Made by a program: the position numbers and the translations under genes. From a virus (Duplodnaviria > Caudoviricetes), in IMG/VR virus record IMGVR_UViG_3300032212_000026, positions 1 to 46,585 of that record: a DNA stretch of 46,585 nucleotides; one strand, given 5' to 3'. This document shows, in pieces, positions 1 to 46,585 of this stretch (the first letter of the stretch is position 1; the number at the start of each line of letters is the position of its first letter). The notes beneath the pieces were generated by a model, which saw only the letters and a program-made list of their open reading frames with translations, was not told the origin of the DNA and did not search any database.

Positions 1-127
1 ACTCCCTCAATTGCTTTGCGTAAGGCGAAGAGGCTTTACCAGGGACATTAGCTAAGTTTGGGTCCTTATGACTAGACCTGTGAGTTGTCGCTCCTAGGCC
101 CCTTACAACCCCGTGAATGCGATTGTC
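1..127. repeat. Terminal 127-bp overlap (copy 1), circular-assembly redundancy
   Basis: 1-127 is identical to 46459-46585. It lies inside the DNA polymerase ORF and 127 is a common assembler k-mer length. Confidence 0.95.
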
Positions 128-1141
128 CTTTCCTAGGTTCTGTTTGTAATTGTTAACCAACCCTAGCCTAGAGGTTAGCATCTTGTACTCAGGGATGTAC
201 TTGATTTCCTTTGGAGCTGTACTCGGTATAGTGTTGAGGTTATCTTCGTCTAGTTTCCACCCGTACACCTCAAACTTACGTAGCTTTATCTCCTCTTCTG
301 GTGTAAGTGGACGCTTACGTTTAAGCTTAAGTATATCCAGGTGACCCTTGGTCTTAACAAAAGGTTTCCACCCGTACTCATCGAGCTTATCAATTACTTG
401 CTGGTTACTGTTCATGTTAAACGGTACAAGTGTTTCTTTAATGAACGGCACACCTTTAACGTACCCTTTTGTTTTGTTATCTCTCTTGGGTACGAACACC
501 TCTTGCTTAACTGTTGGTGGAAAGGCTATCTTAATCTCGTCATCTAGCTGTGCTTGTCTTAGTCGGATGTTGAGGTCAAGATCGTTTAGTTTTACTGGGT
601 CTACAGGTAATCCATTAATGCGTTGTTGTTCTAGGATACATTGAAGGTTATGCTCTAGCTCCATTGACTCTTCACCTGACCCTTCACGTTCGAGTAAGTT
701 AATGAGCTTCTTGTACACCTTGATACCTAACCTACAATCATCTTTACAGTACTCGATCATCTCAGGTGTTAGCTTTTCGAAGTCGTTGAACTCTGTCTTA
801 GCTTCGTTACACAAGCGTTTACCTAGAGCATCGAGGCTGTTGTCAAGTCTAGGATCGTACAGCTGGGCTAGGATAAGAGTATCAACAAACTTATATGGGT
901 TAAGCTTAGAATATAGGTGGTGCTTGAGTACGTGAAAGTCAAAGTTAAGTACGTTGTGCCCTACTATGTACTCAGCCTCATCAAGTACATCGTAAAGATC
1001 AGACATATGAGAACAACCAAACCTACCATACCAAGTATAAGCGTGTTCCATCCCTGTCTCTAGGTCTACTACTACAACACAGTGTAGAGTTGAGGTTGGG
1101 TCGAGGTTCTCTGTCTCGCAATCAAGATAAATGTTTTTCAT
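1..1141 (-). CDS. polA: Family A DNA polymerase, N-terminal part (3'-5' exonuclease domain); continues across the junction to 45776, about 607 aa in total
   Basis: Manual translation from the ATG at 1141: MKNIYLDCETENLD (ExoI DxE), IVGHNVLNFDF (ExoII), MIEYCKDD (ExoIII), RIHGVVRGLGATTHRSSHKDPNLANVP. In frame with the 45776 ORF through the overlap. Confidence 0.95.
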   Translation of the reverse strand, partial: MKNIYLDCETENLDPTSTLHCVVVVDLETGMEHAYTWYGRFGCSHMSDLYDVLDEAEYIVGHNVLNFDFHVLKHHLYSKLNPYKFVDTLILAQLYDPRLDNSLDALGKRLCNEAKTEFNDFEKLTPEMIEYCKDDCRLGIKVYKKLINLLEREGSGEESMELEHNLQCILEQQRINGLPVDPVKLNDLDLNIRLRQAQLDDEIKIAFPPTVKQEVFVPKRDNKTKGYVKGVPFIKETLVPFNMNSNQQVIDKLDEYGWKPFVKTKGHLDILKLKRKRPLTPEEEIKLRKFEVYGWKLDEDNLNTIPSTAPKEIKYIPEYKMLTSRLGLVNNYKQNLGKDNRIHGVVRGLGATTHRSSHKDPNLANVPGKASSPYAKQLRE

Positions 1142-1325
1142 CTAACACTTCCTCAATAATTTTTTCTGCCATCTCTTCAGGCAGTTGATCTGGTAAGTAA
1201 ACCCCAGCGTAATTAAAATACACAGCATCTATCTTGATCGCTATCAGCTCTTTTAAATCGTAGCAGCTACACTCTTCTGGAGAGAAACATTTACAATCTT
1301 GACACCAATATTCTGTTATCGTCAT
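1122..1325 (-). CDS. Small hypothetical protein with a Cys cluster
   Basis: 67-aa ORF (CQDCKC...CSC) overlapping the helicase stop and the polymerase start. Confidence 0.6.
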   Translation of the reverse strand: MTITEYWCQDCKCFSPEECSCYDLKELIAIKIDAVYFNYAGVYLPDQLPEEMAEKIIEEVLDEKHLS

Positions 1326-2851
1326 TCTACTTTCTCCGTTATTCTGTAAGTTTCATCATCAAAGTACAACAACCCACTCGGACCAGTAGGACCAACGAAC
1401 CTGTTCTTACGCACTGTAAGGCTAGTTATGTTCTCACCTTGCATGAGGTCACGCTTCATATCAATCCAAGTATCAGCTATCTTCTCAGGGTTACTACTAC
1501 CTTTGATCTCCCCATCTCTGTTAAGGTGTGACACGATAACACAACAGAAGTCTAGCTTCTTAGCAAGGGCCTTGAGTTTAGTTGATAGTTTATCCAAGGC
1601 TTTACGTTCATCCATGTTACGTTGATCTGCTACAGCCATAGAGATGTGATCGTAAAAGATAAACTTACACCCTAACCCCTCAACCATGTACTGTACCATA
1701 GCTAAGATCTCATCAATGTCTAAGGAGCCAACCTCGTAGTGTCCGTGTGTACGTTCAAGGGGAAGCTCAGCCTTAGCTTTATCCCACTCCTCCTTAGGTA
1801 CTTGGTTACGTACGTGTTTAAAGTGAACAGGTTTATCTAACTTGATAGACATTAAACGTTTACCAAAGTCTTTCTCGTTCTCCTCTTGTCCTATAGAACC
1901 TACGTTGTAATTAGTTTCGGTTAACACCTTGTACAAGACCTCGTTCATGATGTAAGACTTACCTACACCTGACTGAGCAGTGAGCATAACAACCTCACCA
2001 AACCTCATGCCCATAGTCTTAATGTTCAAGCACTCCCAAGGATAGTTAACTACAGTACTAACAGGAGGTGTATCAATTGCTTTCTCCCACGCTTCACGTC
2101 CACTCACTATACCAGTAGGCTTAGGGTACTCTGCTAGGTTAAACACCTTTTGAAATAAGCTAATGCCTTCAGGTGAGATGTTATAATCACAAGCATCTTT
2201 CATTTCACCGTGAGTAAGATCCATTACTTTTACTTTGTGCATAGGTAGGAGCTTGAGTGCTTGGTCTGTAGCTTTACGTCCTGGTTCATCAGCATCAAAG
2301 CAAAGATAGATATTCTTAAAGCTATTAACGTACTCCATGTTGTCAGCTAAGCCAGTCTTAACAGAAGAGCTACCGTTAACTAGAGACACACAAGGGATAA
2401 CAGAACCTAGCATCTGGTACGCAGCCATAGCATCGTCTTCACCCTCAGTAATAACTAGGTTAGGACTACTGTTAGGAGGAAAGGCGTGTGAACCAAAGAG
2501 CTGTACATTCTTATGTTTACCTTGTATAGTGTACCTGTTACCATCGGGTAGCTCTGTCTTAGTCTTAACCGAAGTGATTGAACCACTGTTATAGTAATGA
2601 TAAGACCTTTGACCTGCTTCGTTAGTACTCACATTGTACTTGGTTACTGTGTTAAGGTTGATGTTACGTTTAAGTATTGCTTGTACTGTACCTGAGAACT
2701 CCAAGTCTTCTAGACCTCCTCTATCAAAACCATTACTGTTAGTGTAGTACCCACACGAAAAGCATTTCTTACTTCCATTAGGAAACTCAACGAAACCTTT
2801 AGAAGTTGTACACTTAGGACAGGGGCCCTTCTTTACTTTGTCTTCGTACAT
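1322..2851 (-). CDS. T7 gp4-like DNA primase-helicase
   Basis: N-terminal Zn ribbon (CPKC...CFSC), TOPRIM motifs (ITEGEDDAM, CFDADEPG), Walker A AQSGVGKS, DnaB-like motifs DHIS, VSHLNR, KNRFVGPTG. Confidence 0.95.
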   Translation of the reverse strand: MYEDKVKKGPCPKCTTSKGFVEFPNGSKKCFSCGYYTNSNGFDRGGLEDLEFSGTVQAILKRNINLNTVTKYNVSTNEAGQRSYHYYNSGSITSVKTKTELPDGNRYTIQGKHKNVQLFGSHAFPPNSSPNLVITEGEDDAMAAYQMLGSVIPCVSLVNGSSSVKTGLADNMEYVNSFKNIYLCFDADEPGRKATDQALKLLPMHKVKVMDLTHGEMKDACDYNISPEGISLFQKVFNLAEYPKPTGIVSGREAWEKAIDTPPVSTVVNYPWECLNIKTMGMRFGEVVMLTAQSGVGKSYIMNEVLYKVLTETNYNVGSIGQEENEKDFGKRLMSIKLDKPVHFKHVRNQVPKEEWDKAKAELPLERTHGHYEVGSLDIDEILAMVQYMVEGLGCKFIFYDHISMAVADQRNMDERKALDKLSTKLKALAKKLDFCCVIVSHLNRDGEIKGSSNPEKIADTWIDMKRDLMQGENITSLTVRKNRFVGPTGPSGLLYFDDETYRITEKVE

Positions 2852-2995
2852 TCATTCTCCCTTCTCATTCTCACTGTCAGAGAGGGCGGTAGTAACAACG
2901 TCTTTGATACGATCAACTATGCCACCAAAATACGGGCTTGTTAAACTGGCAATCTCCTTCAAAGCCTCTTCCAGTCTCGCCTCTCTGTCTGTCAT
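2852..2995 (-). CDS. Small hypothetical protein (47 aa, MTDREARLEEALKEIASL...)
   Basis: Manually translated. It fills the gap between coupled neighbours, with an ATGA overlap on the upstream stop. Confidence 0.55.
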   Translation of the reverse strand: MTDREARLEEALKEIASLTSPYFGGIVDRIKDVVTTALSDSENEKGE

Positions 2996-3213
2996 CTTTG
3001 GTCTTCCTCTGTATTAATACTCTTGTTTAACCAAGACTCAAACTCTAAGTGGTCATCTATGATATCCTTTTCTCCTAGTAAAGTAATGTTATCTTCTAAG
3101 ACTACACTATCTATAGCTAGTTTACACACCTTACAAGGCAGAGCTTTACCAGTAATGTCTTCAAACTTAGAGTCTTCGTCTTTAATGTCTTCATCACATA
3201 TGTAGCATCTCAC
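2992..3213 (-). CDS. Small Zn-finger-like protein
   Basis: CYIC...CKVC motif; SD-like AAAGGAAG upstream; first gene after the 3240-3268 promoter. Confidence 0.7.
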   Translation of the reverse strand: MRCYICDEDIKDEDSKFEDITGKALPCKVCKLAIDSVVLEDNITLLGEKDIIDDHLEFESWLNKSINTEEDQR

Positions 3214-3239
3214 ATTAAACTTCCTTTCTCTCTAACTAT

Positions 3240-3268
3240 ATTATCTCACACTTATCTGTTAAAGTCAA
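3240..3268 (-). promoter_or_regulatory. Sigma70-type promoter TTGACT-N17-GATAAT with extended -10 (TG)
   Basis: Minus strand TTGACTTTAACAGATAAGTGTGAGATAAT; nearly identical to the promoter at 45538-45566. Confidence 0.8.
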
Positions 3269-3285
3269 GGGTTAACTTACTTAAG

Positions 3286-3301
3286 TGTGATCGTTGTCAC
3301 T
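3286..3301. promoter_or_regulatory. CRP-family box TGTGA-N6-TCACT at about -61 of the 3240-3268 promoter
   Basis: TGTGA TCGTTG TCACT, 17 bp upstream of the -35 hexamer. Confidence 0.65.
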
Positions 3302-3397
3302 TTATCTATTAATAGGGTTTTGACTCATGAGCCTTTTAGAACACCAGCTCGGTGGGTTGTACCTCCAGTTCTGTAGAGGAGGAGTAAGAAACATAGC

Positions 3398-4309
3398 TCA
3401 AGCTGCCTCTCTTGTGAAGTTAATGTCAGTGATACCGTTCTTAACCAACAAGTTTTCTGTTATTTTCATAGCACCTTCGAGTGTATCAAACTCATCAGCT
3501 ACATCGTGTGCTAAGCCAGCAAAGATAATCCTATCAACACCGTCAGTAAAAGCATCAGGCCCTAGCTGTTGAGCTACACCGTACCCATCACTAAAAGCTC
3601 TACCGTACTCTTGTTCAGTGTGAGATTCTTTAAGAGCAAACATCATACGTCTAAGAAAAGATAGGTGACAGATAGCAAAGGCTAGTTGGTTAATGTCAAA
3701 CGGATCTTCGTAGTCTTTAAGGCACACCTCGTGAAGAGAAGTAAGACCACCACTCTTACCTAACTCAGCTGCTGTTACCCTTACTCTGTGTCCCATCTGT
3801 TCGAGGTTATCAATCACCTTCAACGCAGCAGTACCGTAGTTAAACAACCTGTTAGCATCATTGAACCAAGCGTACCCTACCTGGAGTACTACCTCGTACT
3901 GTTTCTTAGGGTTAAAGTTATCTCCTCTAGCAAACATACACATAGGGTTACCACTAAGAAATGTAGGTACGTCTGGTACGTAACCGTGTACGTTCATCTC
4001 TTGTTGGTTAACCTTGCCTGCGTTGAACTGGCTGTTAGTAACGTCGATCTCGTTCAACCGTTCAGTACCCTCAGCCCATCCGTTCTGCATCAAGTCGAAC
4101 GCTTCTTCGATGTTCTTAGTACCAGTAAAACTATAGTCATCTTTAAGGCTAGATCTCCTGTGTGACCAGAACCTAGTGTCAGGATCGTTAAGGTACGTAG
4201 CTAAGTGATCCAAGCTATCGAACCCTTTGTAGTACTTAGGAACGAGCTTCTTGTTAATGTGGTGTGCTTGTTCGTGTGTTGTATAATCAGTAGTCATCTT
4301 GTACTCCAC
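3398..4309 (-). CDS. VWA-like/DUF7192-like partner of the MoxR-type AAA+ ATPase
   Basis: GYVPDVPTFLSGNPMCM, FAICHLSFLRR and GYG motifs resemble phage proteins found next to CbbQ/MoxR-like ATPases; lies just downstream of the ATPase. Confidence 0.65.
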   Translation of the reverse strand: MEYKMTTDYTTHEQAHHINKKLVPKYYKGFDSLDHLATYLNDPDTRFWSHRRSSLKDDYSFTGTKNIEEAFDLMQNGWAEGTERLNEIDVTNSQFNAGKVNQQEMNVHGYVPDVPTFLSGNPMCMFARGDNFNPKKQYEVVLQVGYAWFNDANRLFNYGTAALKVIDNLEQMGHRVRVTAAELGKSGGLTSLHEVCLKDYEDPFDINQLAFAICHLSFLRRMMFALKESHTEQEYGRAFSDGYGVAQQLGPDAFTDGVDRIIFAGLAHDVADEFDTLEGAMKITENLLVKNGITDINFTREAA

Positions 4310-4520
4310 TCCTTTCTTGTAAGTCTTCGACAGCTAATATCAATTCAAGGATAGCCTTAAATGTATTGTACATAAGGAACACAAATACTGTTACCCATCC
4401 AGTGTACCCTAACCACTCAGTAAAGTAGTACAAACCTAAACTGATTAAAGAGTACAAGATTGTAACAAGTGTTGCTGCTATAGTTTTTACAAAGCTAGAA
4501 TATTTCTTTGATTTAATCAT
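4287..4520 (-). CDS. Small membrane protein (two hydrophobic helices)
   Basis: 77-aa ORF with two hydrophobic stretches; coupled to neighbours. Confidence 0.65.
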   Translation of the reverse strand: MIKSKKYSSFVKTIAATLVTILYSLISLGLYYFTEWLGYTGWVTVFVFLMYNTFKAILELILAVEDLQERSGVQDDY

Positions 4521-4729
4521 GGTGTTGATACCTCTCTTTCTTGTGATTTACTACGTTTAACTTTGTGTCTAGCTTTACTATTTTTTATACTAAATCCTTG
4601 AGGGGTCCTCCCAGATATAGACATACAAAGAGTAACTAAATTATTACCAAAGGCTACAGTAAAAGTACCGTTCGCATTCTTGTACTTTGATAACCTAGCT
4701 CTACAATTTAGTGGTGGGCTACGCAGCAT
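4517..4729 (-). CDS. Hypothetical basic protein
   Basis: 70-aa ORF overlapping both neighbours in an operon-like way. Confidence 0.5.
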   Translation of the reverse strand: MLRSPPLNCRARLSKYKNANGTFTVAFGNNLVTLCMSISGRTPQGFSIKNSKARHKVKRSKSQEREVSTP

Positions 4730-6035
4730 TGGACTTGATCTTCTTAACTTGCTCAGGTGGGAGACCTTTGAACACTACCATCTCCATGACTTGAGGGACT
4801 GTAAAGTTACCGTGCTTGATAAGCTTAGCTCCATAGATAGAAGCACGAGGCGAGATAACGTGTCGGATCTTAGCCTTAGCTACACCACGACGCATCTTCT
4901 GTACTACATCAACAAGCTCATCGTTGTTAGCGAGGGTACGTTCCATAGCTTCATCGTAATCCCAATCAATTACAGCAAATCTATCCAAGGTTGCAGCATC
5001 TAGTTGGTTACGGCCTACGTACATCCTGTCAGCGCCACGTCCAAAGGTATTAGCAGCACAGATAACAATGAAGTCCTTGTGTTTGTTAATACGTCCAACA
5101 GGGAAGTCGTGCATACCGTTCTCAACTAGCATGTTAGTACCAACCAAGACTTCAGGGTGACCAGCATCCAACTCATCCAAGAGTAGTACACCTCCATCTT
5201 TGAAAGCCTTGTAAGTTTGAGTGTCGTGGTACACACCGTTAGCATCAATGAACCCGTTCAACTGGTGTAGTCCTGACATAGCACCACTGAAATAGAACGG
5301 CAAGCCAAGACTATCAGCCAACTGTTTAGCAGCTGTAGTTTTACCTGAACCAGCAGGACCTACGAGCATAGGATTAACCCCAGCTTTAACACACCCAGCC
5401 ATACTAGGGAACTTGTAATGTGCTAGTTCAGGGTGTGCCTCATCATCAATGTCCCTCTGAATGGACACAGTAGTAGGTGTAGAGAGCTTCTCGATTAGCT
5501 TAGTGATCTCCTCCTTAGCTTTAACCAAGCCCTTCTCTGACTCTTCCTTTGCTCGTTGAGCGTTGAGTTCGATGATCTCATCAGTACGTGCTTGTACCTT
5601 TTCATCAATCTTACCCATCTCTTCGTCGATCTTAGGTCCGATCACCATACCGAGCAAGTCTTGTACTGATACGCCACCGTCTTGTTGCTGTGGTTGAGGT
5701 GTGCGGTGGTGTCGTGTTGTACCTCCGTTGGTGAGGTCTTTAAATTTACTCATGTCCTGTTCTCCGTCATCTTCAATAGGTGTAGGTTCTATACCTTGTT
5801 TCATATCAATGTAGTTACACACTGCCTTGATAGTTTGTGCTTTACTAGGCTTGTTACGCCAAGTTCTGTTCCAAGAGTCGTCGTTAGCACATCTAATTGT
5901 AGCAGTCCAGCTACCTGGGTAATCGTTGTGAAGGGCGATCTTAATTACGTCGCCATTATGATTGTACTGTTTTAAGTCGTACCTTCCTCTTGTTTTAAGG
6001 TATCTCTTTAGACTCTCTGTATTGATAGTGGGCAT
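4719..6035 (-). CDS. MoxR/CbbQ/NorQ-like AAA+ ATPase with N-terminal extension
   Basis: Walker A GPAGSGKT, Walker B LLLDELD, sensor AANTFGRG, Arg-finger region QLDAATLDRF, sensor-2 SPRA. Confidence 0.9.
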   Translation of the reverse strand: MPTINTESLKRYLKTRGRYDLKQYNHNGDVIKIALHNDYPGSWTATIRCANDDSWNRTWRNKPSKAQTIKAVCNYIDMKQGIEPTPIEDDGEQDMSKFKDLTNGGTTRHHRTPQPQQQDGGVSVQDLLGMVIGPKIDEEMGKIDEKVQARTDEIIELNAQRAKEESEKGLVKAKEEITKLIEKLSTPTTVSIQRDIDDEAHPELAHYKFPSMAGCVKAGVNPMLVGPAGSGKTTAAKQLADSLGLPFYFSGAMSGLHQLNGFIDANGVYHDTQTYKAFKDGGVLLLDELDAGHPEVLVGTNMLVENGMHDFPVGRINKHKDFIVICAANTFGRGADRMYVGRNQLDAATLDRFAVIDWDYDEAMERTLANNDELVDVVQKMRRGVAKAKIRHVISPRASIYGAKLIKHGNFTVPQVMEMVVFKGLPPEQVKKIKSNAA

Positions 6036-6060
6036 ACAAAGTTACTCCTCTCTCTCCGTG

Positions 6061-6450
6061 TTAATGTTTCTTAGTAAAGTCAAAAGGAATTACTGTATCT
6101 CCCATGTCCTTTACTTGTTGGTCGATAGCATCTAGCTCTGCTAGTTCAGAACCTAAGTCAGCTTCACGTCGTACTTCTTCCTCGACTTGAGTCATCCTTT
6201 GTTCCATCTCTTTAGCTGCTCTCATCGTAGCAATGAACTTAAGTGCCATGTCCTTAGCTTTTTCTTCAGAGATAAAGTCACCTTGCATAAGAGCTTCTTC
6301 CCAAGTACCGTCATCAAACGCAGCCTTAACTACTACGCTGTAAGATTCTCGATCCTTTGAAGAGGCGTGCATCTTAATGATACGTGATAGTGAGACAGTA
6401 GTTTCACTAAGCTTAACTTGTTTGCGGTTGTCGTCATTGTTACCAAACAT
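6061..6450 (-). CDS. Hypothetical protein
   Basis: 129-aa ORF with an AGGAG SD and a coiled-coil-like C-terminus. Confidence 0.75.
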   Translation of the reverse strand: MFGNNDDNRKQVKLSETTVSLSRIIKMHASSKDRESYSVVVKAAFDDGTWEEALMQGDFISEEKAKDMALKFIATMRAAKEMEQRMTQVEEEVRREADLGSELAELDAIDQQVKDMGDTVIPFDFTKKH

Positions 6451-6664
6451 TTCTGTTGTACTCCTGTGTTATAAGTTTGTTTATTGTGTACGCCCAGCCT
6501 AACCATCCGAAGGTAGCTAAGCACATCAGTACTGTACCCCACCAAGTTTGTGTTGTAAAGATAATTGAGGCTTGATTTGTCCACAGATTTACTGTCATGT
6601 ACAGTACTGATACCCATAAAAGCATACACGACATTACTAAATCGAATTTACTATCTATTTTCAT
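6440..6664 (-). CDS. Small membrane protein
   Basis: Two hydrophobic segments; likely start MKIDSKF at 6664. Confidence 0.65.
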   Translation of the reverse strand: MKIDSKFDLVMSCMLLWVSVLYMTVNLWTNQASIIFTTQTWWGTVLMCLATFGWLGWAYTINKLITQEYNRNVW

Positions 6665-6669
6665 AAGCT

Positions 6670-6891
6670 TTATTCCCATCCGTTGATGTGTTGTCTGTTG
6701 ATGATACGGCTAGGGATACCATCGAGTTTGTACATCTCAACAGTCTCTAAACCCCAACTCATATCTCTTGTTGTCTCTTCTACAGTGTACCAAGTCCCAT
6801 CCTTTAACTTAACTTGGATGTAGTACCTTTGGTTAGTGAGGCTTGGAAGAGTGGGCGTATCTAGTGTTTTTAATCCTTGTAATTGAACGAT
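6670..6891 (-). CDS. Possible 73-aa protein with a non-AUG (ATC) start
   Basis: Open frame IVQLQGLKTLDTPTLPSLTNQRYYIQVKLKDGTWYTVE...GWE*, with AAGGAG 7 nt upstream of ATC; fills an otherwise empty gap. Confidence 0.4.
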   Translation of the reverse strand: MVQLQGLKTLDTPTLPSLTNQRYYIQVKLKDGTWYTVEETTRDMSWGLETVEMYKLDGIPSRIINRQHINGWE

Positions 6892-7021
6892 ATCTTAACT
6901 CCTTTAGGTTTGATGTTACTCCTCTTTGTCTGTTACTTACTCTTGTATCTATGACACGGGATAACATATGTCTTTCTTTTATGTAAACGTAAGGATAGTA
7001 CAGAGGAGGTAACATAGTCAC
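6833..7021 (-). CDS. Hypothetical basic protein
   Basis: 62-aa ORF coupled (GTGA) to the upstream stop. Confidence 0.5.
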   Translation of the reverse strand: MTMLPPLYYPYVYIKERHMLSRVIDTRVSNRQRGVTSNLKELRYRSITRIKNTRYAHSSKPH

Positions 7022-7398
7022 TGCTCTTCTAGTACTAAGGTACCATCCTCCTCGATAGTAGCTTTGATCAAGACTGTGTTACCTTCTTTACTTTCGCAGA
7101 GCTTTTCGATCTCAAGTATCTTATCAAAGAACCCTGATGAGTACAACCTTTCAGTTAAGTCTATCCAAGGAAGGAGTTCAGCTGCTTGAGTAGCTATAAC
7201 AGAAGCTTCAACCGATCTCTTGACGTACAAAAGTAAGACGTAACACAAAGCTACCCATACTAGATAGTGTACCCAAGGACTAATGTTGTACAAGATACTG
7301 TGGTTGTTAAAGAAAGTACTACTCATTACAGTAACCAAGATCACTGACATAATAGAGGTAAATATTCGCGTCGCTCTCGGTGTTAGTTTAATAAACAT
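7018..7398 (-). CDS. Membrane protein (two TM helices)
   Basis: 126-aa ORF; strong SD AAGGAG supplied by the duplicated cassette. Confidence 0.75.
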   Translation of the reverse strand: MFIKLTPRATRIFTSIMSVILVTVMSSTFFNNHSILYNISPWVHYLVWVALCYVLLLYVKRSVEASVIATQAAELLPWIDLTERLYSSGFFDKILEIEKLCESKEGNTVLIKATIEEDGTLVLEEQ

Positions 7399-7551
7399 AT
7401 CATTGTTTCTCCTTTTTTAATTAGACCTAAACCTAGACCAAGACCAAGACCTAGACTTAGACCCAGACCCAGACTTAGACCAAGACCTAAACCTAGTCAT
7501 AGATCTAAACCTAGACCTAGACTCTCTGTTAACTAAGTGCAGAGGGACAAC
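7388..7551. repeat. Duplicated cassette copy A (24-bp and 42-bp identical flanks around a hexamer array)
   Basis: 7388-7429 = 8883-8924 (42 bp) and 7528-7551 = 9059-9082 (24 bp); the interior is a degenerate (TCT-NGG)n array on the minus strand. Confidence 0.95.
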
Positions 7552-7554
7552 CAT
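7417..7554 (-). CDS. Ser-Arg/Trp/Gly dipeptide-repeat peptide A (45 aa)
   Basis: Manual translation MVVPLHLVNRESRSRFRSMTRFRSWSKSGSGSKSRSWSWSRFRSN*. Starts 4 nt after the stop of the Sm-like gene; paralog of 8912-9094. Confidence 0.75.
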   Translation of the reverse strand: MVVPLHLVNRESRSRFRSMTRFRSWSKSGSGSKSRSWSWSRFRSN

Positions 7555-7558
7555 TGTC

Positions 7559-7933
7559 TTAAGAGGATGGTGAAGGTAGAGGGTGAGGCCAGTACGTTAC
7601 GTCAACGATCATAGCTCTATTAACCAGGACATCGTACGGGTACTGCACTGACTCACTCAAGCTACCGTTGTTCAAGCACTGTTCCCAGTCACCTGTATCA
7701 GCGATCCAAGATGCTTTAGTTAACACTATGTCAGTGCCGCTCATCTGCTGGATGATACCGGTGTAGTACATTGAGATAGTACGGATGATAACAGGCATAC
7801 CGAGGACCAAGCTATGTGATTCAGGGATGTTAGATACATCTGATTGGTCTGTGTTTGGTTTAAAGATTAAAGTTTCGTGTTCCATTTTATTTAAGTTCCT
7901 TTTCTGTGTTCTTAGTTTAGTAAACTTGTTCAC
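7559..7933 (-). CDS. Putative Sm/Hfq-fold (LSm-like) protein; true start may be 7885
   Basis: GMPVIIRTISMYYTGIIQQMSGTDIVLTKA resembles the Sm1 motif and VLVNRAMIVDV resembles Sm2, with a WIADTG segment in between. The fold call is by eye. Confidence 0.6.
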   Translation of the reverse strand: MNKFTKLRTQKRNLNKMEHETLIFKPNTDQSDVSNIPESHSLVLGMPVIIRTISMYYTGIIQQMSGTDIVLTKASWIADTGDWEQCLNNGSLSESVQYPYDVLVNRAMIVDVTYWPHPLPSPSS

Positions 7934-8117
7934 CTGTCTGGCTTATGTAAGGTTTTGAGTACTTAGGGTAAGTCTTTCTTGTAGAATCTACTTGATACTT
8001 TACAGAACTACCAGGCTCTCCTTCAACAAAGCTTACACTAGCGTACATCGACCAAGTCTTTACAAAGTTAGACCCGATAGCACCAGTTACCTTGCGAGTT
8101 GATAATCTAGAGACCAT
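7917..8117 (-). CDS. Hypothetical protein
   Basis: 66-aa ORF filling the gap between neighbours; start uncertain. Confidence 0.35.
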   Translation of the reverse strand: MVSRLSTRKVTGAIGSNFVKTWSMYASVSFVEGEPGSSVKYQVDSTRKTYPKYSKPYISQTGEQVY

Positions 8118-8434
8118 AGTTCAAAGTCCATATCAATTGTAATGTTAACGTGTTTATAGTACCGAGCACCGTACCTATTGACAAACTCAAAGACACGTTC
8201 CCAATCAGGTGCAGTCTTAGCGTCACGCTCAATCTCGGTGTACGTTCTACCTCTCAAGAACCCGTACGCTAGGTTCATACATCGAGCATCACTCTTGATA
8301 ATAGTTCTGTACTCTTGCTCAAGTGTTGAACGTTGAAACCTAGAAAGGTTAGGGTTCTTTAGTTGTTGTTTAAATCGAGAGCACTCATCACTCCCTGACT
8401 TTACTCGTAGTTTAAGGTTGTACTTAGTGGTCAT
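8087..8434 (-). CDS. Conserved phage hypothetical protein (LAYGFLRGR family)
   Basis: The motif ARCMNLAYGFLRGRTYTEIE is recognisable from early-region proteins of other phages; GAGG SD. Confidence 0.75.
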   Translation of the reverse strand: MTTKYNLKLRVKSGSDECSRFKQQLKNPNLSRFQRSTLEQEYRTIIKSDARCMNLAYGFLRGRTYTEIERDAKTAPDWERVFEFVNRYGARYYKHVNITIDMDFELWSLDYQLAR

Positions 8435-8696
8435 GTTGGGTATCCTCTAGTTTAATTTGTTCGAGTTCTTTGATAGCTTCACTGATACTCAATCTATCTT
8501 GTCTGTTGTACGTGTGTAGCACTCTAAGTATCAAGAAAAATAAGATCAAAGAGTTCATGAAATAACTACCACCTACAAAGGTATAGTTAAACCATAACAT
8601 TAAGGCAAGCAGTACGTACGAAACAAAATCACGTACTATGTGTTGTCCTAGTGTTTCTCTTAAGATGATTATTTTAGTTTTAGGTTTAGCAATCAT
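8424..8696 (-). CDS. Membrane protein
   Basis: 90 aa with two hydrophobic segments; AGGAG SD. Confidence 0.7.
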   Translation of the reverse strand: MIAKPKTKIIILRETLGQHIVRDFVSYVLLALMLWFNYTFVGGSYFMNSLILFFLILRVLHTYNRQDRLSISEAIKELEQIKLEDTQHDH

Positions 8697-8698
8697 TC

Positions 8699-8893
8699 TT
8701 ATGTTCTCCTTTTAGTTTTAGTTATTGTACTGTGTGTTGGTTTACTTGCATTAGTTATAAATGATCCGTTACTCTGTAGTTTTTCAGCTGTCCATGAAGA
8801 TGTTTTATATGCGTACCCATCTATTATACAGTACTTTACCTCTCCCCAATTAAATTTATTCATCCATGCGTACCTCGCTGTGTTAATAAACAT
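8699..8893 (-). CDS. Hypothetical protein
   Basis: 64 aa; uses the same cassette-derived SD and MFI start as 7018-7398. Confidence 0.65.
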   Translation of the reverse strand: MFINTARYAWMNKFNWGEVKYCIIDGYAYKTSSWTAEKLQSNGSFITNASKPTHSTITKTKRRT

Positions 8894-9082
8894 ATCATTG
8901 TTTCTCCTTTTTTAATTAGACCTAGACCAAGGCCTAGACCAAGGCCTATACCCAGACCCAGACCAAGACCAAGACCTATACCCAGACCAAGACCAAGACC
9001 TAAGCCTAGACCTAGACCTAGACCTAGACCTAAACCTAGCCCTAGACCTAGACCTTTGGTTAACTAAGTGCAGAGGGACAAC
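8883..9082. repeat. Duplicated cassette copy B
   Basis: Same 42-bp and 24-bp flanks as 7388-7551 around a longer, different hexamer array. Confidence 0.95.
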
Positions 9083-9094
9083 AGGTTGGTACAT
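8912..9094 (-). CDS. Ser-Arg/Trp/Gly dipeptide-repeat peptide B (60 aa)
   Basis: MYQPVVPLHLVNQRSRSRARFRSRSRSRSRLRSWSWSGYRSWSWSGSGYRPWSRPWSRSN*; ATG is 1 nt after the upstream stop. Confidence 0.8.
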   Translation of the reverse strand: MYQPVVPLHLVNQRSRSRARFRSRSRSRSRLRSWSWSGYRSWSWSGSGYRPWSRPWSRSN

Positions 9095-9095
9095 A

Positions 9096-9341
9096 TTAAA
9101 GTACCCCTATTAACGCAAGTAACCACATCCACATCATGACTACTGCTAACACAGTAACTAGTACAGCCAAGATAAGGACGAGCACAATTATCTTCATGAA
9201 CAAGTCATCTTTATGGTACACCCACATGCTAGGTATCTCTTCTGCGCACACTCGTATCAAACCTAGTGCTGCTATTGTACCTACTAAGCACAAGCTTATC
9301 CACACAGGTACAAACAAGATCGTTACTAATCCTACATCCAT
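9096..9341 (-). CDS. Membrane protein (two TM helices)
   Basis: Likely start MDVGLV at 9341 after GGAG; very hydrophobic. Confidence 0.7.
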   Translation of the reverse strand: MDVGLVTILFVPVWISLCLVGTIAALGLIRVCAEEIPSMWVYHKDDLFMKIIVLVLILAVLVTVLAVVMMWMWLLALIGVL

Positions 9342-9423
9342 CTTTCTTTCTCCTCTATAGGCCCCGTAAGGCTTGAGTGTTCTTGTGTTTAACAAAGTGT
9401 TCCATCGCAAACTCTGCTAGTTG

Positions 9424-9481
9424 GTTGAATACACATAAAGGGTACCAACTGTTACATCAGTACCCCTTAGACTTACTCAAC
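9424..9481 (-). other. RNase III-type processing hairpin
   Basis: Minus-strand RNA GUUGAGUA..UAAGGGGUACUGAU-loop-GUUGGUACCCUUUA..UAUUCAAC: two helices with an internal loop and the CCUUUAUG feature of T7 early RNase III sites. Confidence 0.7.
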
Positions 9482-9498
9482 GTGTGTGTGTGTGAGAA

Positions 9499-10005
9499 TT
9501 AGAGTTCAGCAGTAACCGCGTCGATCCGAGCGTTAACCTCGTCAAGAAGTTCTTTGGATACGTGGTCTGCACCCTTTGTCATCTCTTTTTTGCGGAACTG
9601 TTGGAGAGCCTTGCTCAGGTCCAAGAGGTTACGTACCTTAGGTTCCTTTGGCTCAGTGTCCTCTGGTTTTTCGAATGGGCTATGCGTGATAGCGTAATCA
9701 ATATTCCAGAGAGACTTGGTGTTATCATCCTTCGCACCCTTGGTAAGGTGGAAAGTTTTAAACGCCTTGTCATCATCCAAGCGTACACCGATAGGACCAG
9801 ACTTCTTAATCCAACCTAGTAGTGTAGCACTATCGCGCTCAGATTGAGAGAGCACAAAGGTATAGATAGGGTTGAAAACTGAAGGATCGTTATGTTCTGC
9901 TGCGTGGTGCAACAAATCAACCAAGTCATTCCAGATAACTTTAGCGTTACCTTGGCGAGACTTGTAACCTTCAATGATTGAGTTCTGAATGTTTGTATAT
10001 GTCAT
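9499..10005 (-). CDS. First early gene, conserved phage hypothetical protein
   Basis: 168 aa; the pattern HAAEHND...LLGW...PF resembles first-early proteins of phiKMV-like and related podoviruses; SD GAAGGA. Confidence 0.8.
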   Translation of the reverse strand: MTYTNIQNSIIEGYKSRQGNAKVIWNDLVDLLHHAAEHNDPSVFNPIYTFVLSQSERDSATLLGWIKKSGPIGVRLDDDKAFKTFHLTKGAKDDNTKSLWNIDYAITHSPFEKPEDTEPKEPKVRNLLDLSKALQQFRKKEMTKGADHVSKELLDEVNARIDAVTAEL

Positions 10006-10011
10006 GATTTA

Positions 10012-10070
10012 TCATCCTTCTAGTTAAACACGATCAACACCATGTTAATCATGTTAAACAGGAAGGATAA
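10012..10070 (-). other. Long hairpin (RNase III-type) sequestering the SD of 9499-10005
   Basis: AUCCUUC/GAAGGAU outer helix and a 13-bp AACAUGAUUAACA/UGUUGAUCGUGUU inner helix, with G-U pairs valid only on the minus strand. Confidence 0.75.
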
Positions 10071-10079
10071 CAAAAGGGA

Positions 10080-10559
10080 AAAGCGTATCGCTTATATGTT
10101 CATGCCCTGTTACCTGTCCGTTAAGCTTGATAGGTTTTCCACGTGCCACACTCGCTTACTCAATCAAAGCCTTGCCTTAACATGAGACTTATGGGCGCAC
10201 TTATCCCGTCTTAACATAGCCATAACAGCCACATTAACTAACCTTAAACCAATCACCGCCACACGTAGCCAAGGTACAAGCGTACCTCTTAACCGTTTCC
10301 TTTTATCGGCACTCATCGGTAGCTTCTCATCAAAGATAAACAAGGTTATCTAGAGCATAGCCGTGACAGGAACTTCCTGCATTTCACCCGCGAGCCGTTG
10401 TGGTTCGACATGATCATATAGGACCCGTTACCGTATATACCTCGTCATGTGACAAGGCCCGGACCACTTTATAACCGCTGTTTGGCGGTAGCCTTAATAA
10501 GCGAGGCCGCTAGGGTAAGGTGGCGATTCCCTCAAACAAGTGAGGTATAACCAAACCTT
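10080..10559 (-). ncRNA. Candidate large structured non-coding/leader RNA
   Basis: No ORF of 60 aa or more; at least nine helices, a long-range closing stem (10519-10528 with 10251-10263) and a possible pseudoknot found by eye; boundaries approximate. Confidence 0.55.
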
Positions 10560-10565
10560 GAACCA

Positions 10566-10593
10566 AACGTACGCCTTTGAACGAGGATTACAA
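10566..10593 (-). promoter_or_regulatory. Possible sigma70 promoter TTGTAA-N16-TACGTT for the early leader
   Basis: Weak consensus match, but it lies just 5' of the structured RNA and downstream of a CRP box. Confidence 0.35.
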
Positions 10594-10606
10594 GCCGATA
10601 GGGAGA

Positions 10607-10628
10607 AAGTGTGATGACCGTCACATTT
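10607..10628. promoter_or_regulatory. Near-consensus CRP-family box
   Basis: AAG TGTGA TGACCG TCACA TTT. Confidence 0.7.
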
Positions 10629-10675
10629 AAAGGATATGTCCAGACAAAGAGCAACAAGTGTTAAGGAACGCGCGT

Positions 10676-10692
10676 AGCAATAACCGTGCCAA
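10676..10692 (-). promoter_or_regulatory. Sigma54 (-24/-12) motif
   Basis: Minus strand TTGGCACGGTTATTGCT matches TGGCACG-N4-TTGCW. Confidence 0.7.
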
Positions 10693-10910
10693 GTACAGTG
10701 TTAATCGGTCACAAAGAGGGCTAAAACGAAAGGTCTGGGGTCTTTGGTACTCAGCCACCAGAAAGTAGAGATATCGCTGTACGAGGCTCTCAGAGCGTTT
10801 AAAGCACTATGTAAAGAATGTTTAACATTGAGTAAAGCAAACTTTACATGTTGTATAGGGAACCATAGGAAAGGAAGATAGGTTGTATATACTATTCAAG
10901 ATGTTACGAA

Positions 10911-10927
10911 AGCGAGAACCGTGCTAA
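10911..10927 (-). promoter_or_regulatory. Degenerate sigma54-like motif
   Basis: Minus strand TTAGCACGGTTCTCGCT; same spacing as 10676-10692 with three differences. Confidence 0.35.
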
Positions 10928-10962
10928 CTCTGAATTACAGAGTAAGTGACTACTCACTTCTA

Positions 10963-10979
10963 TGCAAGTTTAGTGCCAG
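10963..10979 (-). promoter_or_regulatory. Sigma54 (-24/-12) motif
   Basis: Minus strand CTGGCACTAAACTTGCA matches TGGCAC-N5-TTGCA. Confidence 0.65.
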
Positions 10980-11225
10980 TGTAACTATAAGGAATGTGCT
11001 ACCTTTGAGCACAACTGGGGGTAAGGGGGGTTGGGAGTGCCTCGTGTTTCAAAGAATTACACCTTCAAAATATCTCACATAAAATTTTACACACGTGAGA
11101 AAAAGGGCTAAATCATGTACACGCTGTAACCCGCAGTACGCCTAGGGGCACTTTGAATAACGTAAGGATAACAAGGGTTTAAGGTGTGTCAAGTTTCGCA
11201 TTTAACAATGTACAGACATTCACTA

Positions 11226-11238
11226 TAACCTATTGATA
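11226..11238 (-). promoter_or_regulatory. IHF consensus site
   Basis: Minus strand TATCAATAGGTTA matches WATCAANNNNTTR. Confidence 0.45.
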
Positions 11239-11260
11239 TCATTACACTATAAAAAAGTAC

Positions 11261-11289
11261 TTGACAAGTGAATATAAATTTGTTATAAT
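11261..11289 (+). promoter_or_regulatory. Consensus sigma70 promoter for the morphogenesis arm
   Basis: TTGACA-N17-TATAAT with TG extension and an upstream A-tract; followed by ATAG like the other two promoters. Confidence 0.9.
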
Positions 11290-11394
11290 ATAGTTGAAAG
11301 GTAAGGCTAATTGGGCTTTAGTTTCTCTATACAAGCTTTAACTCTTCTTTTGGTTAACCCGAGCGTTAGCGAGGTATATAGGTAAAATAGATCG

Positions 11395-11428
11395 TATAGC
11401 CATATAGCATAGTATAGCATAGTATAGC
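11395..11428. repeat. Short TATAGC repeats, mostly 10 bp apart
   Basis: TATAGC at 11395, 11403, 11413 and 11423. Confidence 0.8.
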
Positions 11429-11474
11429 TAAGTTAAATCTACGCGCACCAAACCGTTTTAAAAGAAGTATTAAT

Positions 11475-11978
11475 ATGACAGCTCCTAAACATAAAGCAAA
11501 CCTTAACCCAGATAAAAGGTTCCGTACTCCACAAGGTAAGTACAAGACCCAGATGATGTTTAAGGAGTGGTACCCGAACGAAGGAATGTACACGTTACAT
11601 GAGTTACGAGAAAAGTATTTGGAGATTGCTGACCCACTTGAGTACACGTTCGCAACAACGTACTTCGAGGATTGGGCACATTGGGAACACCTTTGTACTA
11701 TTGAGTGGTTTAAAAAAGAAGTAAGTAAATGGCGCTCTGAGTTAGCTGTAAAGATGCAAGCAGAAGGCCTAGCGCTCATAGTAGATGAAGTACGTAACGA
11801 AGGAAAGTCAGCCTTTAACGCTGCCAAGTTCTTGGTTAACAAAGACTGGGTAGAGAAGAAAGAGAAACCTGCTAAGACTAAACAACCAACTACCACAAAG
11901 AAAGAAAAGAACGAGATTAAAGAGTTGGCAGGACTTGACGAAGAAGTGGTAAAACACGCACAACGGATTCTTAACTAA
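11475..11978 (+). CDS. Putative terminase small subunit
   Basis: First gene of the plus arm; the pattern YLEIADPLEYTFA...WAHWEHL...WRSEL...AFNAAKFL resembles the TerS-position gene of SIO1/PA11-like phages. Confidence 0.65.
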   Translation: MTAPKHKANLNPDKRFRTPQGKYKTQMMFKEWYPNEGMYTLHELREKYLEIADPLEYTFATTYFEDWAHWEHLCTIEWFKKEVSKWRSELAVKMQAEGLALIVDEVRNEGKSAFNAAKFLVNKDWVEKKEKPAKTKQPTTTKKEKNEIKELAGLDEEVVKHAQRILN

Positions 11979-36997: not shown

Positions 36998-37543
36998 ATG
37001 AACAAACAGTGTACACAATGTGACGAAACCAAACCTGAATCAGAGTATTATACAAAGAAACGTAGTAAAGTGCGTAAAGACGGTACAGTACATAATTGGT
37101 TAGGATTATATGCAGCTTGTAAAAGATGTGTAGACGGATATAACAAAGCAGCCTCTCATAAGTATAAAGATTATCATGTTCAGTATCGTAAAAATAATAG
37201 AGAGCGGACATCTCGTAACGGTAAACGACACTATGTTAAGGTTATGCTTGAGTGGATAGAGTTAATCAAAACTAAGAAGGCTCTTGAATGTACAGCGTGT
37301 GGATATAACAAGACATGGGCTGCACTAGATTTTCATCACGTAGACCCAAGAGAAAAAGAAAACACAATACACTCTATTATGAAATCAGGTAAACCAACAG
37401 AAGAACGGTGGGCTTTGATGCAAACAGAACTAGATAAATGTGTAATCTTGTGTGCCAACTGTCATAGAGAGGAGCATATGAAGTATAATTACCTAGAACT
37501 GGATGCTGAGAAGGTTGTCAAGGAGTATAATCAAGGTAAGTGA
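36998..37543 (+). CDS. HNH endonuclease
   Basis: CTACGY...ALDFHHVDP...KCVILCANCHREEH plus an N-terminal CxxC...CxxC. Confidence 0.85.
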   Translation: MNKQCTQCDETKPESEYYTKKRSKVRKDGTVHNWLGLYAACKRCVDGYNKAASHKYKDYHVQYRKNNRERTSRNGKRHYVKVMLEWIELIKTKKALECTACGYNKTWAALDFHHVDPREKENTIHSIMKSGKPTEERWALMQTELDKCVILCANCHREEHMKYNYLELDAEKVVKEYNQGK

Positions 37544-41803: not shown

Positions 41804-41984
41804 AGTTATCCTCGTTCTCCATTAAATCATCTTCAAATATGTGAGGCATAGTATCCTCGTTGATGTGCCCCTCTTCTATTAAGAACTCAATTAAATCCCA
41901 CAGGTCAAACTGTGCTGCATCCAAGATTTCACTCACGCTGTCATAACTATCCATAACCCTTCTTATTAGTCGTTCATTTAACAT
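41793..41984 (-). CDS. Small acidic protein
   Basis: 63-aa ORF coupled to neighbours. Confidence 0.65.
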   Translation of the reverse strand: MLNERLIRRVMDSYDSVSEILDAAQFDLWDLIEFLIEEGHINEDTMPHIFEDDLMENEDNYDD

Positions 41985-42435
41985 GTTTCCAAATCTTTCT
42001 AGTATTAATTTGAGAAATCGTTGAATTGCTTACACCATATACCTTCGCAATTTCTCTATTCGTCTGCCCCTTACATAATCTGTGGCGTATTTCTAGTACA
42101 TTTTCTTCTGTTAATTTAGACGTGGGGTTACTAGTTCCAAACGTCTGCCTTCCTTTCTTTTTCATGTCGTGCATGTTATCTTTATGAGTACCTATGAAAA
42201 GATGGGCTGGATTAATACACGTACGTTCATCACATGTATGTAGAACTAACTTACCTTTTGGTATAGTTTCTTGATGATAGGCTTCATAAGATAGTCTATG
42301 CGCTCTATATGTTTTTCCTTTCCACCGCACTTTACCATAGCCGTCCCAGGTCTTACCTCCAGACCAACACCAACATCCTTCTTCACCATCAGGATAGAAC
42401 GAATACCACTCAAGTTTAAGTATTTTATCGTCCAT
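41974..42435 (-). CDS. Free-standing HNH homing endonuclease with a C-terminal HTH
   Basis: CWCWSG...GYG...AHRLSY...VLHTCD...CINPAHLFIGTHKDNMHD; NREIAKVYGVSNSTISQI. Confidence 0.9.
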   Translation of the reverse strand: MDDKILKLEWYSFYPDGEEGCWCWSGGKTWDGYGKVRWKGKTYRAHRLSYEAYHQETIPKGKLVLHTCDERTCINPAHLFIGTHKDNMHDMKKKGRQTFGTSNPTSKLTEENVLEIRHRLCKGQTNREIAKVYGVSNSTISQINTRKIWKHVK

Positions 42436-45566: not shown

Positions 45567-45776
45567 GCCATTTGTTCTACTAGTGTGACGACCATCACAT
45601 TTTGAACCGTACTTCCAATTTTCTGTAGAACTTGACCACCAATAACTTCCTCTGTCCTTTGCTATATACACTGACCCATCGTGGCTACACCCTGACTTAC
45701 TTGACTTGTTGAAACGTTTAAATCTCTGGACGTAAAGGTTAACAGGAATGCTAGTGAACATCGTTAGCTCCTCCAT
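45555..45776 (-). CDS. Hypothetical protein
   Basis: 73-aa ORF coupled (TAATG) to the polymerase stop. Confidence 0.5.
   Translation of the reverse strand: MEELTMFTSIPVNLYVQRFKRFNKSSKSGCSHDGSVYIAKDRGSYWWSSSTENWKYGSKCDGRHTSRTNGLTF
45584..45599. promoter_or_regulatory. CRP-family box TGTGA-N6-TCACA at about -61
   Basis: TGTGA CGACCA TCACA, 17 bp upstream of the -35 hexamer, the same spacing as at 3286. Confidence 0.7.
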
Positions 45777-46585
45777 TAATGTACGTCATACCAAGTCCTT
45801 CCGATCTTAGGTTTACCAGTTATCCTAGCTTTGATACCTAACTCCAACCCTGCTTGAGTAAGAGCTGCTGCTTGGTGAGATCCTGTTCGCTGTGGGTACT
45901 GATGCACGTTAGGTACTTCAACCAACCACTCATCGTGTACGAAAGCTACTTGTTTAAACGGTATGTCTATATCTTTTAGTTCCTTGTCCCATATGATATT
46001 AGCTTTAGCCATGATGATCTTCTCGTACCCTTGGAGGGCTGTAGCTAGGACAAAGTGTTCGTTAGATACCTTCATCTTTCTACCATCAGGACCTAAGACG
46101 TACCCTTGTGTAGCCATACGAGGTACCCACGTTCCTTTTAGTTCAGCTAGGGCAGGTGTACTCTTAAGAAACATATCGTACCTTTGCTTAGCTTCACCAA
46201 CTGAACACCCTAAGATCTGTGCGAGCTTAGCGATACCTGCGTTGAGTACGAACGCATAGATAAAAGTCTTAGCTGTGTCACGTGACACTCCACCAAGAGA
46301 CCTAGCATTAATACTGTGTACATCAGTTCCATCTTCTTCCTTTCCAGTTACAACTGCGTTAATATAATCAGGATCATCCATTAGGTGTGCAAGGATACGC
46401 AACTGAATAGCATCAGCATCTGTACCAACGAACACACTACCCTCTGGTGCTACGACCAACTCCCTCAATTGCTTTGCGTAAGGCGAAGAGGCTTTACCAG
46501 GGACATTAGCTAAGTTTGGGTCCTTATGACTAGACCTGTGAGTTGTCGCTCCTAGGCCCCTTACAACCCCGTGAATGCGATTGTC
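45776..46585 (-). CDS. polA: Family A DNA polymerase, C-terminal polymerase domain (continuation of 1-1141)
   Basis: Motif A GTDADAIQLR, motif B RDTAKTFIYAF, motif C FVHDEW, and IGRTWYDVH. Confidence 0.95.
   Translation of the reverse strand, partial: DNRIHGVVRGLGATTHRSSHKDPNLANVPGKASSPYAKQLRELVVAPEGSVFVGTDADAIQLRILAHLMDDPDYINAVVTGKEEDGTDVHSINARSLGGVSRDTAKTFIYAFVLNAGIAKLAQILGCSVGEAKQRYDMFLKSTPALAELKGTWVPRMATQGYVLGPDGRKMKVSNEHFVLATALQGYEKIIMAKANIIWDKELKDIDIPFKQVAFVHDEWLVEVPNVHQYPQRTGSHQAAALTQAGLELGIKARITGKPKIGRTWYDVH
46459..46585. repeat. Terminal 127-bp overlap (copy 2)
   Basis: Identical to 1-127. Confidence 0.95.

Follow-up and report, generated by a model that had tools for sequence, protein, structure and literature searches.

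What is the stretch at positions 10080-10559 that lies upstream of the early genes of a phage on the minus strand: a new class of non-coding RNA, part of a longer transcript, or ordinary non-coding DNA? We addressed this question in a window of 46,585 nt, which is the whole of virus record IMGVR_UViG_3300032212_000026 and is classed as carrying direct terminal repeats. The original prediction had proposed a large multi-stem RNA with a possible pseudoknot, belonging to an undescribed phage ncRNA class. We find the 5' leader of the first early transcript to be the simpler reading, and folding models suggest that the stretch is likely a structured, RNase III-processed early leader that possibly acts on host RNA polymerase.

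Position of the stretch between the genome arms

Judged from sequence, the window holds the complete genome of a Zobellviridae-like podophage. Its genes include those for a family A DNA polymerase, a primase/helicase, a CobS-like ATPase, ribonucleotide reductase, terminase, portal, and capsid; the capsid shares 43-48% identity with cobavirus capsids (e.g., CRP-4, SIO1, and ICBM2). The early genes occupy the minus strand up to 10005 and the late genes the plus strand from 11475, and these divergent arms are separated by a 1.47-kb gap that contains the studied stretch (Table 1). The first late gene had matches in 80 phage records, and those inspected were Zobellviridae. No RNA polymerase was matched among the window ORFs scanned (overlapping sets of 37, 11, and 10), although four large late ORFs without a family leave room for a divergent polymerase; Zobellviridae appear to rely wholly on the host RNA polymerase.

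Several other features of the genome were recorded. The DNA polymerase frame leaves the window at its start (1-1141), and the C-terminal ORF (45776-46585, minus strand) restarts at 46468; the record junction falls within this gene, which may be intact. Two HNH endonuclease genes are free-standing: the first (36998-37543, plus strand) lies between the holin and endolysin genes, the second (41974-42435, minus strand) upstream of the ribonucleotide reductase gene, and intron models gave no match at either. A hexamer repeat array at 8906-9094 (minus strand) encodes a 60-aa frame of Arg-Ser/Trp-Ser, and similar frames come after the phrog_1448 gene in the related region L021. A Logan contig seems to stop near this array. 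No variants relative to the window were seen in a single DNA contig (one run), which may be the record's own source.

The gap also holds a motif that precedes the direct terminal repeat across the family. In ICBM2, the annotated 159-bp repeat begins directly after the equivalent of this motif, and cobavirus repeats are described as 159 to 173 bp long, G+C-rich at the 5' end, and situated in an ORF-free region between the arms (PMC6775973, Bischoff et al.). The window resembles this terminal region in its two-arm layout, terminus motif, and C-rich tract; by analogy, its left genome end would lie near 11059, so that the candidate RNA would begin about 500 nt inside the genome end. It differs from ICBM2, where the first promoter and the first gene are only ~265 nt apart, and the accessible text of PMC6775973 describes no RNA in the ORF-free region. 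The motif together with the C-rich tract (11086-11015) is useful for placing genome ends of metagenomic Zobellviridae. As a separate observation, a strong promoter-like site at 11192-11165 (minus strand) points across the putative terminal repeat and is followed by a terminator-like hairpin at 11013-10995 (minus strand); the pair may have a role in concatemer processing or replication.

The stretch had been described as bounded by a candidate promoter and a processing hairpin. This layout fits, but the promoter candidate is weak: it matches at 7/12 positions, falls below the threshold of the promoter scan, and is less clear than the promoters at the equivalent place in relatives. Transcription from it is predicted to start near 10559.

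Table 1. Features in and around the putative leader, with the loci of the PA11-like leader RNA in related regions.
Feature	Position	Strand	Remarks
Terminator-like 14-bp hairpin, directly after first gene	9436..9469	-	Poor U tract; terminator scan
First early gene, 168 aa	9499..10005	-	Weak match to phrog_1448 (unknown function), E 3e-5
Long irregular stem, ~29 bp	10008..10074	-	3' arm holds Shine-Dalgarno GAAGGA (10020-10015); in MFE and centroid
Weak terminator-like hairpin inside leader	10081..10093	-	Scan: 4 such sites versus 2.2 expected
Stem with AGUA/GAA internal loop	10120..10172	-	Weak resemblance to the conserved loop-E-like arm of PA11-like leaders
Local hairpins 10380-10366, 10287-10272, and GU-rich 10237-10211	10211..10380	-	Ensemble; remainder poorly determined
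Predicted multibranch domain	10384..10518	-	Closing helix 10518-10505/10396-10384, two hairpins, arm 10467-10400 with hairpin 10458-10439
First hairpin of leader	10530..10545	-	p 0.79-1.0
Sigma-70-like promoter candidate, weak	10566..10593	-	TTGTAA, 16 nt, TACGTT; 7/12 matches, read from sequence
Putative direct terminal repeat and left genome end	10890..11059	-	By analogy with cobaviruses; C-rich tract 11035-11015
Family-wide terminus motif preceding direct terminal repeat	11060..11086	-	Same motif in 28 of the 59 related regions scanned, many of them too short to contain it
Late-arm sigma-70 promoter, perfect	11261..11289	+	12/12 consensus matches
First late gene, phrog_8035	11475..11978	+	Conserved across Zobellviridae
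PA11-like leader RNA loci	L124:1245-1700; L127:1075-1610; L192:1141-1569; L121:579-1005; L201; L206; L208; L212		

As predicted, no ORF of 60 aa or more was found on either strand of the stretch; the longest, with a TTG start, has 59 aa (10164-10343). A frame within it (10316-10164) has an ATG with a purine-rich stretch upstream, and the leader might encode a 50-aa basic, hydrophobic peptide there. The internal short ORF has a codon-usage score of -0.14, in the range of antisense frames, versus +0.17 for the two flanking genes, and it belongs to no Pfam or PHROG family; we regard such a peptide as highly improbable. The stretch had also not been recognised as a tRNA, tmRNA, intron, or known ribozyme, and ARAGORN gave 0 tRNA or tmRNA genes. 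The Rfam 15 covariance models gave 0 matches at gathering score in the window; six sub-threshold matches in 9900-11500 were at chance level (E 0.35-8.8), and none fell inside 10080-10559.

The same search of 9900-11500 returned no ribozyme family at E <= 10. Near 10319-10296 lies a fragment that we take to be hammerhead-like, in which, by eye, C replaces U in CUGAUGA and stem II is not closed; an intact hammerhead core (CUGANGA/GAAA, three stems) is not present in the leader. The Rfam library that yields no hammerhead in the window does detect one in a relative, Pseudomonas phage GP100 (L192:573-644), where a type II hammerhead close to the left end exceeds the gathering score. This relative and the fragment speak for a self-cleaving or other catalytic RNA with a pseudoknot, to which we give almost no credence given the broken core, the Rfam result, and the pseudoknot analysis below. 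A likeness of short strings to RNase P, to domain V of group II introns, or to the leader of O4 was weighed and not accepted.

Predicted folding of the putative leader

Taken alone, the interval 10080-10559 folded no better than shuffled sequences (z -0.94, 18/100 shuffles equal or better), and the comparison that the original prediction had itself put forward therefore went against it for this interval. The z value was -1.26 for 10200-10560 and -2.23 for the trimmed segment 10245-10550 (1/100 shuffles as good). The best subdomain, 10384-10520, had z -2.0, with 11% of 202 genome windows lower on a sense-strand background, and the other subdomains of the interval lay between the 18th and 44th percentiles of those 202 windows.

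The strongest structure lies mostly outside these coordinates. The segment around the terminal stem (10006-10120) had z -6.2, below all 202 background windows; it is the processing hairpin that had been placed at the boundary, and an RNase III-type site is predicted in its stem (10074-10008). Significant folding was likewise obtained for the whole leader (10000-10559; z -3.63, 0/100 shuffles as good) and for its 3' part (z -4.04, 0/200 shuffles as good), and the significance of the whole leader arises mainly from the 3' stem.

The complementary segments listed in the original prediction are present on the minus strand and each folds alone, the interval as a whole being at chance. In the whole-leader ensemble, high probabilities were obtained for the hairpins 10545/10530 (p 0.79) and 10489/10474 (p 0.96), for the hairpin 10380/10366 in the stem at 10363-10387 (p 0.98), for the stem 10287/10272 (p 1.0), and for the GU-rich hairpin 10211-10237 (p 0.94), which is indeed specific to the minus strand (-8.4 kcal/mol versus 0 on the plus strand). 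The long arm at 10400-10467 held in part: GUGGU/ACCAC had p 0.88, but ACAUGA/UCAUGU and UAUAUA/UAUAUG had p 0-0.14, the ensemble preferring hairpin 10458-10439 over these inner helices. The proposed closing helix 10528/10251 reached p ~0.67 in a 306-nt fragment but only 0.01 in the whole leader. Most pair probabilities in the multibranch domain 10384-10518 were 0.85-1.0 in the predicted ensemble.

The crossing pair CGGGCC/GGCUCG, suggested to form a pseudoknot, was not supported. Its structure is at least 7.6 kcal/mol worse than the MFE, and an equal partner was present in 79/200 shuffles. Forcing the predicted arm gave -83.5 kcal/mol as compared with -99.7 kcal/mol for the MFE, a cost of 16 kcal/mol, while the crossing helix adds at best -8.6 kcal/mol; instead, the nested helix 10518-10505/10396-10384 engages the 3' strand of the crossing pair. 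Because the fold and the pseudoknot are unsupported, the interval is at chance, and no homolog was found, an undescribed ncRNA class is unproven for the window copy. What stands of this claim is a long, putative non-coding RNA of the minus strand, which fits the layout; relatives have covarying RNAs in the corresponding position.

These values bear on the main rival, in which the 3' stem alone works as RNA, whereas the 480 nt upstream of it would be ordinary non-coding DNA of a genome terminus (with promoters or signals for entry, replication, or packaging) whose hairpins arise by chance. The z of the interval, subdomains at the 11th to 44th genome percentiles, the chance-level pseudoknot, the ORF-free region at cobavirus termini (PMC6775973), and the outcome of our searches for leader homologs are all consistent with it. 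It accounts less readily for a G+C content of 46-49% in the stretch versus 30-44% elsewhere in the gap, above 10700, or for several helices with p > 0.85. Moreover, the equivalent PA11-like leaders covary despite z of only -1.9 (PA11) and -2.3 (O4), so that a weak z does not exclude function. We consider ordinary terminal DNA somewhat unlikely.

Leaders of related phages

Blastn with positions 9400-11500 as query detected no DNA homologs among 50,697 phage records, the 168-aa protein matched only itself among phages, viral contigs, and the protein database, and a metagenome scan returned the window's own record alone. When viral contigs were scanned for exact 15-mers, 36 matches resulted, none of them aligning over more than 23 nt, and a gapped helix-plus-pseudoknot pattern gave 3 matches, about the estimated chance number and all within GC-rich open frames. 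Searches with nhmmer, first of 59 related regions and later of 71, reached a best E value of 0.13, and a covariance model built from the single sequence 10384-10520 reached 0.62 (61 loci) and 0.16 (20 loci). Remote homologs of the 168-aa protein, with their leaders, were sampled only via phrog_1448 (51 and 28 records, with 3 and 2 matches).

What the relatives share is the layout: a promoter, an ORF-poor leader of 390-610 nt, a long stem, and the first gene. Members of phrog_1448 lie behind similar leaders in PA11, L122, L021, L189, and L190; there, as in other Zobellviridae, the gene comes first or nearly first in the early arm, downstream of a sigma-70-like promoter. When 14 leaders of relatives were delimited by hand and examined in a rough test (14 shuffles, span 200, terminal stems included), 10/14 had z <= -2 and 12/14 folded better on the sense strand, while the leaders of L043 (z +1.0) and L189 (z +0.1) were unstructured. 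By eye, a long stem precedes the first gene in about 10 of the 14. In PA11, O4, and PPAY, the terminal stem pairs the Shine-Dalgarno site, the sequence of the stem being swapped and its structure kept. Other leaders are unrelated in sequence, and those of several relatives are short. Two further likenesses were seen among the relatives: a long-range bulged helix GUUGGAC/GUCCAAC flanked by UGCC/GGCA, common by eye to the leaders of L003, L157, L026, L164, and L165, and a hairpin motif of 35-40 nt common to L003, L017, L131, and L157.

The leader RNA of the PA11-like phages (Paundecimvirus) is ~390-470 nt long. Its elements are a 5' hairpin, an arm resembling loop E, a probable long-range helix, and a terminal stem that covers the Shine-Dalgarno site. 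By comparative sequence analysis it is a covarying RNA, and it has no Rfam match at gathering level. In five sequences, 19/54 predicted pairs of the core covary; with a hand-set structure, 14/35 pairs are compensatory in five sequences, and 18/35 in eight when the alignment is fitted to the model. None of 500 shuffles was as good, and slid controls were 28-39% paired. The five-sequence model revealed two new members, L212 and L208 (E ~2e-6), and a pattern search gave 9 matches, of which L207, L209, and L210 are unrelated. Beside the start site, 8/8 members carry an invariant 5' hairpin of 14 nt (9 of the 14-nt matches being pattern-selected), and a partner for the 5' ACGGGCC strand occurs at offset 229-239 in 5/8 members; this helix resembles the crossing pair proposed for the window.

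The window leader is like the PA11-like leader in genomic position, in size, in its terminal stem over the Shine-Dalgarno site, and in the nearby phrog_1448 gene, and the two share a few short strings. It is unlike that leader in that the invariant hairpin is absent from its 5' end, and nhmmer finds no link. The PA11-like models span only 137 nt; the five-sequence model matched no more of the window leader than a 17-nt fragment (E 6.3), and the best window match of the eight-sequence model, on the right strand and at the right place (10474-10388, minus strand), was not significant (4.5 bits, E 0.49 in 1.6 kb). The likeness of the AGUA/GAA stem of the window to the loop-E-like arm is weak, since 36/100 shuffles also contain such a motif, and counts of the motif in single leaders were at chance level (24-56/100 shuffles). 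The AGUA/GAA arm of L122 was scored at E 0.15 by the eight-sequence model.

Proposed role of the leader

T7, whose genome enters the cell by transcription, has an early leader with the RNase III site R0.3 and releases leader RNAs. As in the T7 early leader, a candidate host-polymerase promoter, though a weak one, lies near the putative left end and is followed by a non-coding leader; this leader takes the T7-type position, ahead of the first early gene and inside the putative genome end, with the long irregular stem 10074-10008 directly before the first ribosome-binding site. Unlike T7, the window has no phage RNA polymerase that we could find, its leader is GC-richer and multi-stem, and cleavage is predicted, whereas RNase III is known to cut T7 transcripts at defined positions (PMC6938266). 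A second point of comparison is the put RNAs of HK022, which bind the zinc-binding domain of the polymerase beta' subunit. They lie downstream of early promoters, act without proteins, and suppress termination, each being ~70 nt long with two adjacent stem-loops (PMC9378689). Like putL and putR, the window leader would act in cis, downstream of a predicted early promoter for host polymerase; compared by description, it differs in being ~550 nt long and multibranched. The element belongs neither to put nor to an Rfam family, and modeling and analogy suggest that it works like a processed podophage early leader.

We hypothesize that host RNA polymerase starts near 10559 as the left genome end enters the cell, and that the leader then folds, its terminal stem 10074-10008 hiding the ribosome site of the first gene. 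Cleavage of this stem by RNase III would open translation of the 168-aa gene and would also free an RNA of ~500 nt. By analogy with HK022 put, the upstream multi-stem part would most likely act in cis on the host polymerase, aiding read-through of terminator-like sites in the early arm. We give an even chance to this joint reading, that is, a folded, RNase III-processed early leader of ~550 nt (10559-10006) with an upstream part acting on host polymerase. Antitermination is its weakest step, since terminator-like sites are not clearly enriched in window positions 1-10700 (8 versus 5.2 expected; promoter-like sites, 17 versus 19.7 expected).

Alternatively, once released, the ~500-nt RNA could act in trans: abundant early in infection, it would serve as a sponge or decoy that occupies a host protein or a defence system. 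Such an RNA would be one of the earliest made and is bounded by a predicted start site and a processing stem; RNAs derived from 5'UTRs are reported in other Pseudomonas phages (PMC10914365), and the PA11-like family keeps its invariant, partly pattern-selected 14-nt 5' hairpin and its loop-E-like arm. The position before the first gene is nevertheless fixed in every case seen, and we think action in trans quite unlikely. A broader proposal extends the early-leader reading: the left-end RNAs of 400-600 nt in Zobellviridae may form a fast-diverging superfamily of RNA-only antiterminators or polymerase decoys, with the PA11-like RNA as prototype and the window leader as a remote member. This proposal is doubtful at present.

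We found no literature on non-coding RNA of Zobellviridae and no published description of these leaders, including in the context of put, leaders, and RNase III, in searches whose coverage excluded most subscription papers. The catalogue of Fremin (PMC10690425) contains 10,006 candidates of 30-151 nt. Three family names have 0 occurrences in six of its supplements, and three further supplementary files may list pieces of these leaders.

Control of host RNA polymerase without the help of proteins is known for few phage RNAs. If long early leaders exert it, this would explain how an early arm of ~19 kb is driven in a lytic podophage without its own polymerase, and the set of large folded RNAs available for study would grow. 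For the window copy itself the claim is modest, namely a predicted processing stem and a plausible, unproven upstream fold. The useful product is the covarying PA11-like leader RNA, which occurs in culturable Pseudomonas phages and is testable in Pseudomonas aeruginosa. In phage FBPa8 (L128:1201-1540), an inserted small gene separates the promoter from the leader RNA, and the -10 region and the RNA start are duplicated after this gene.
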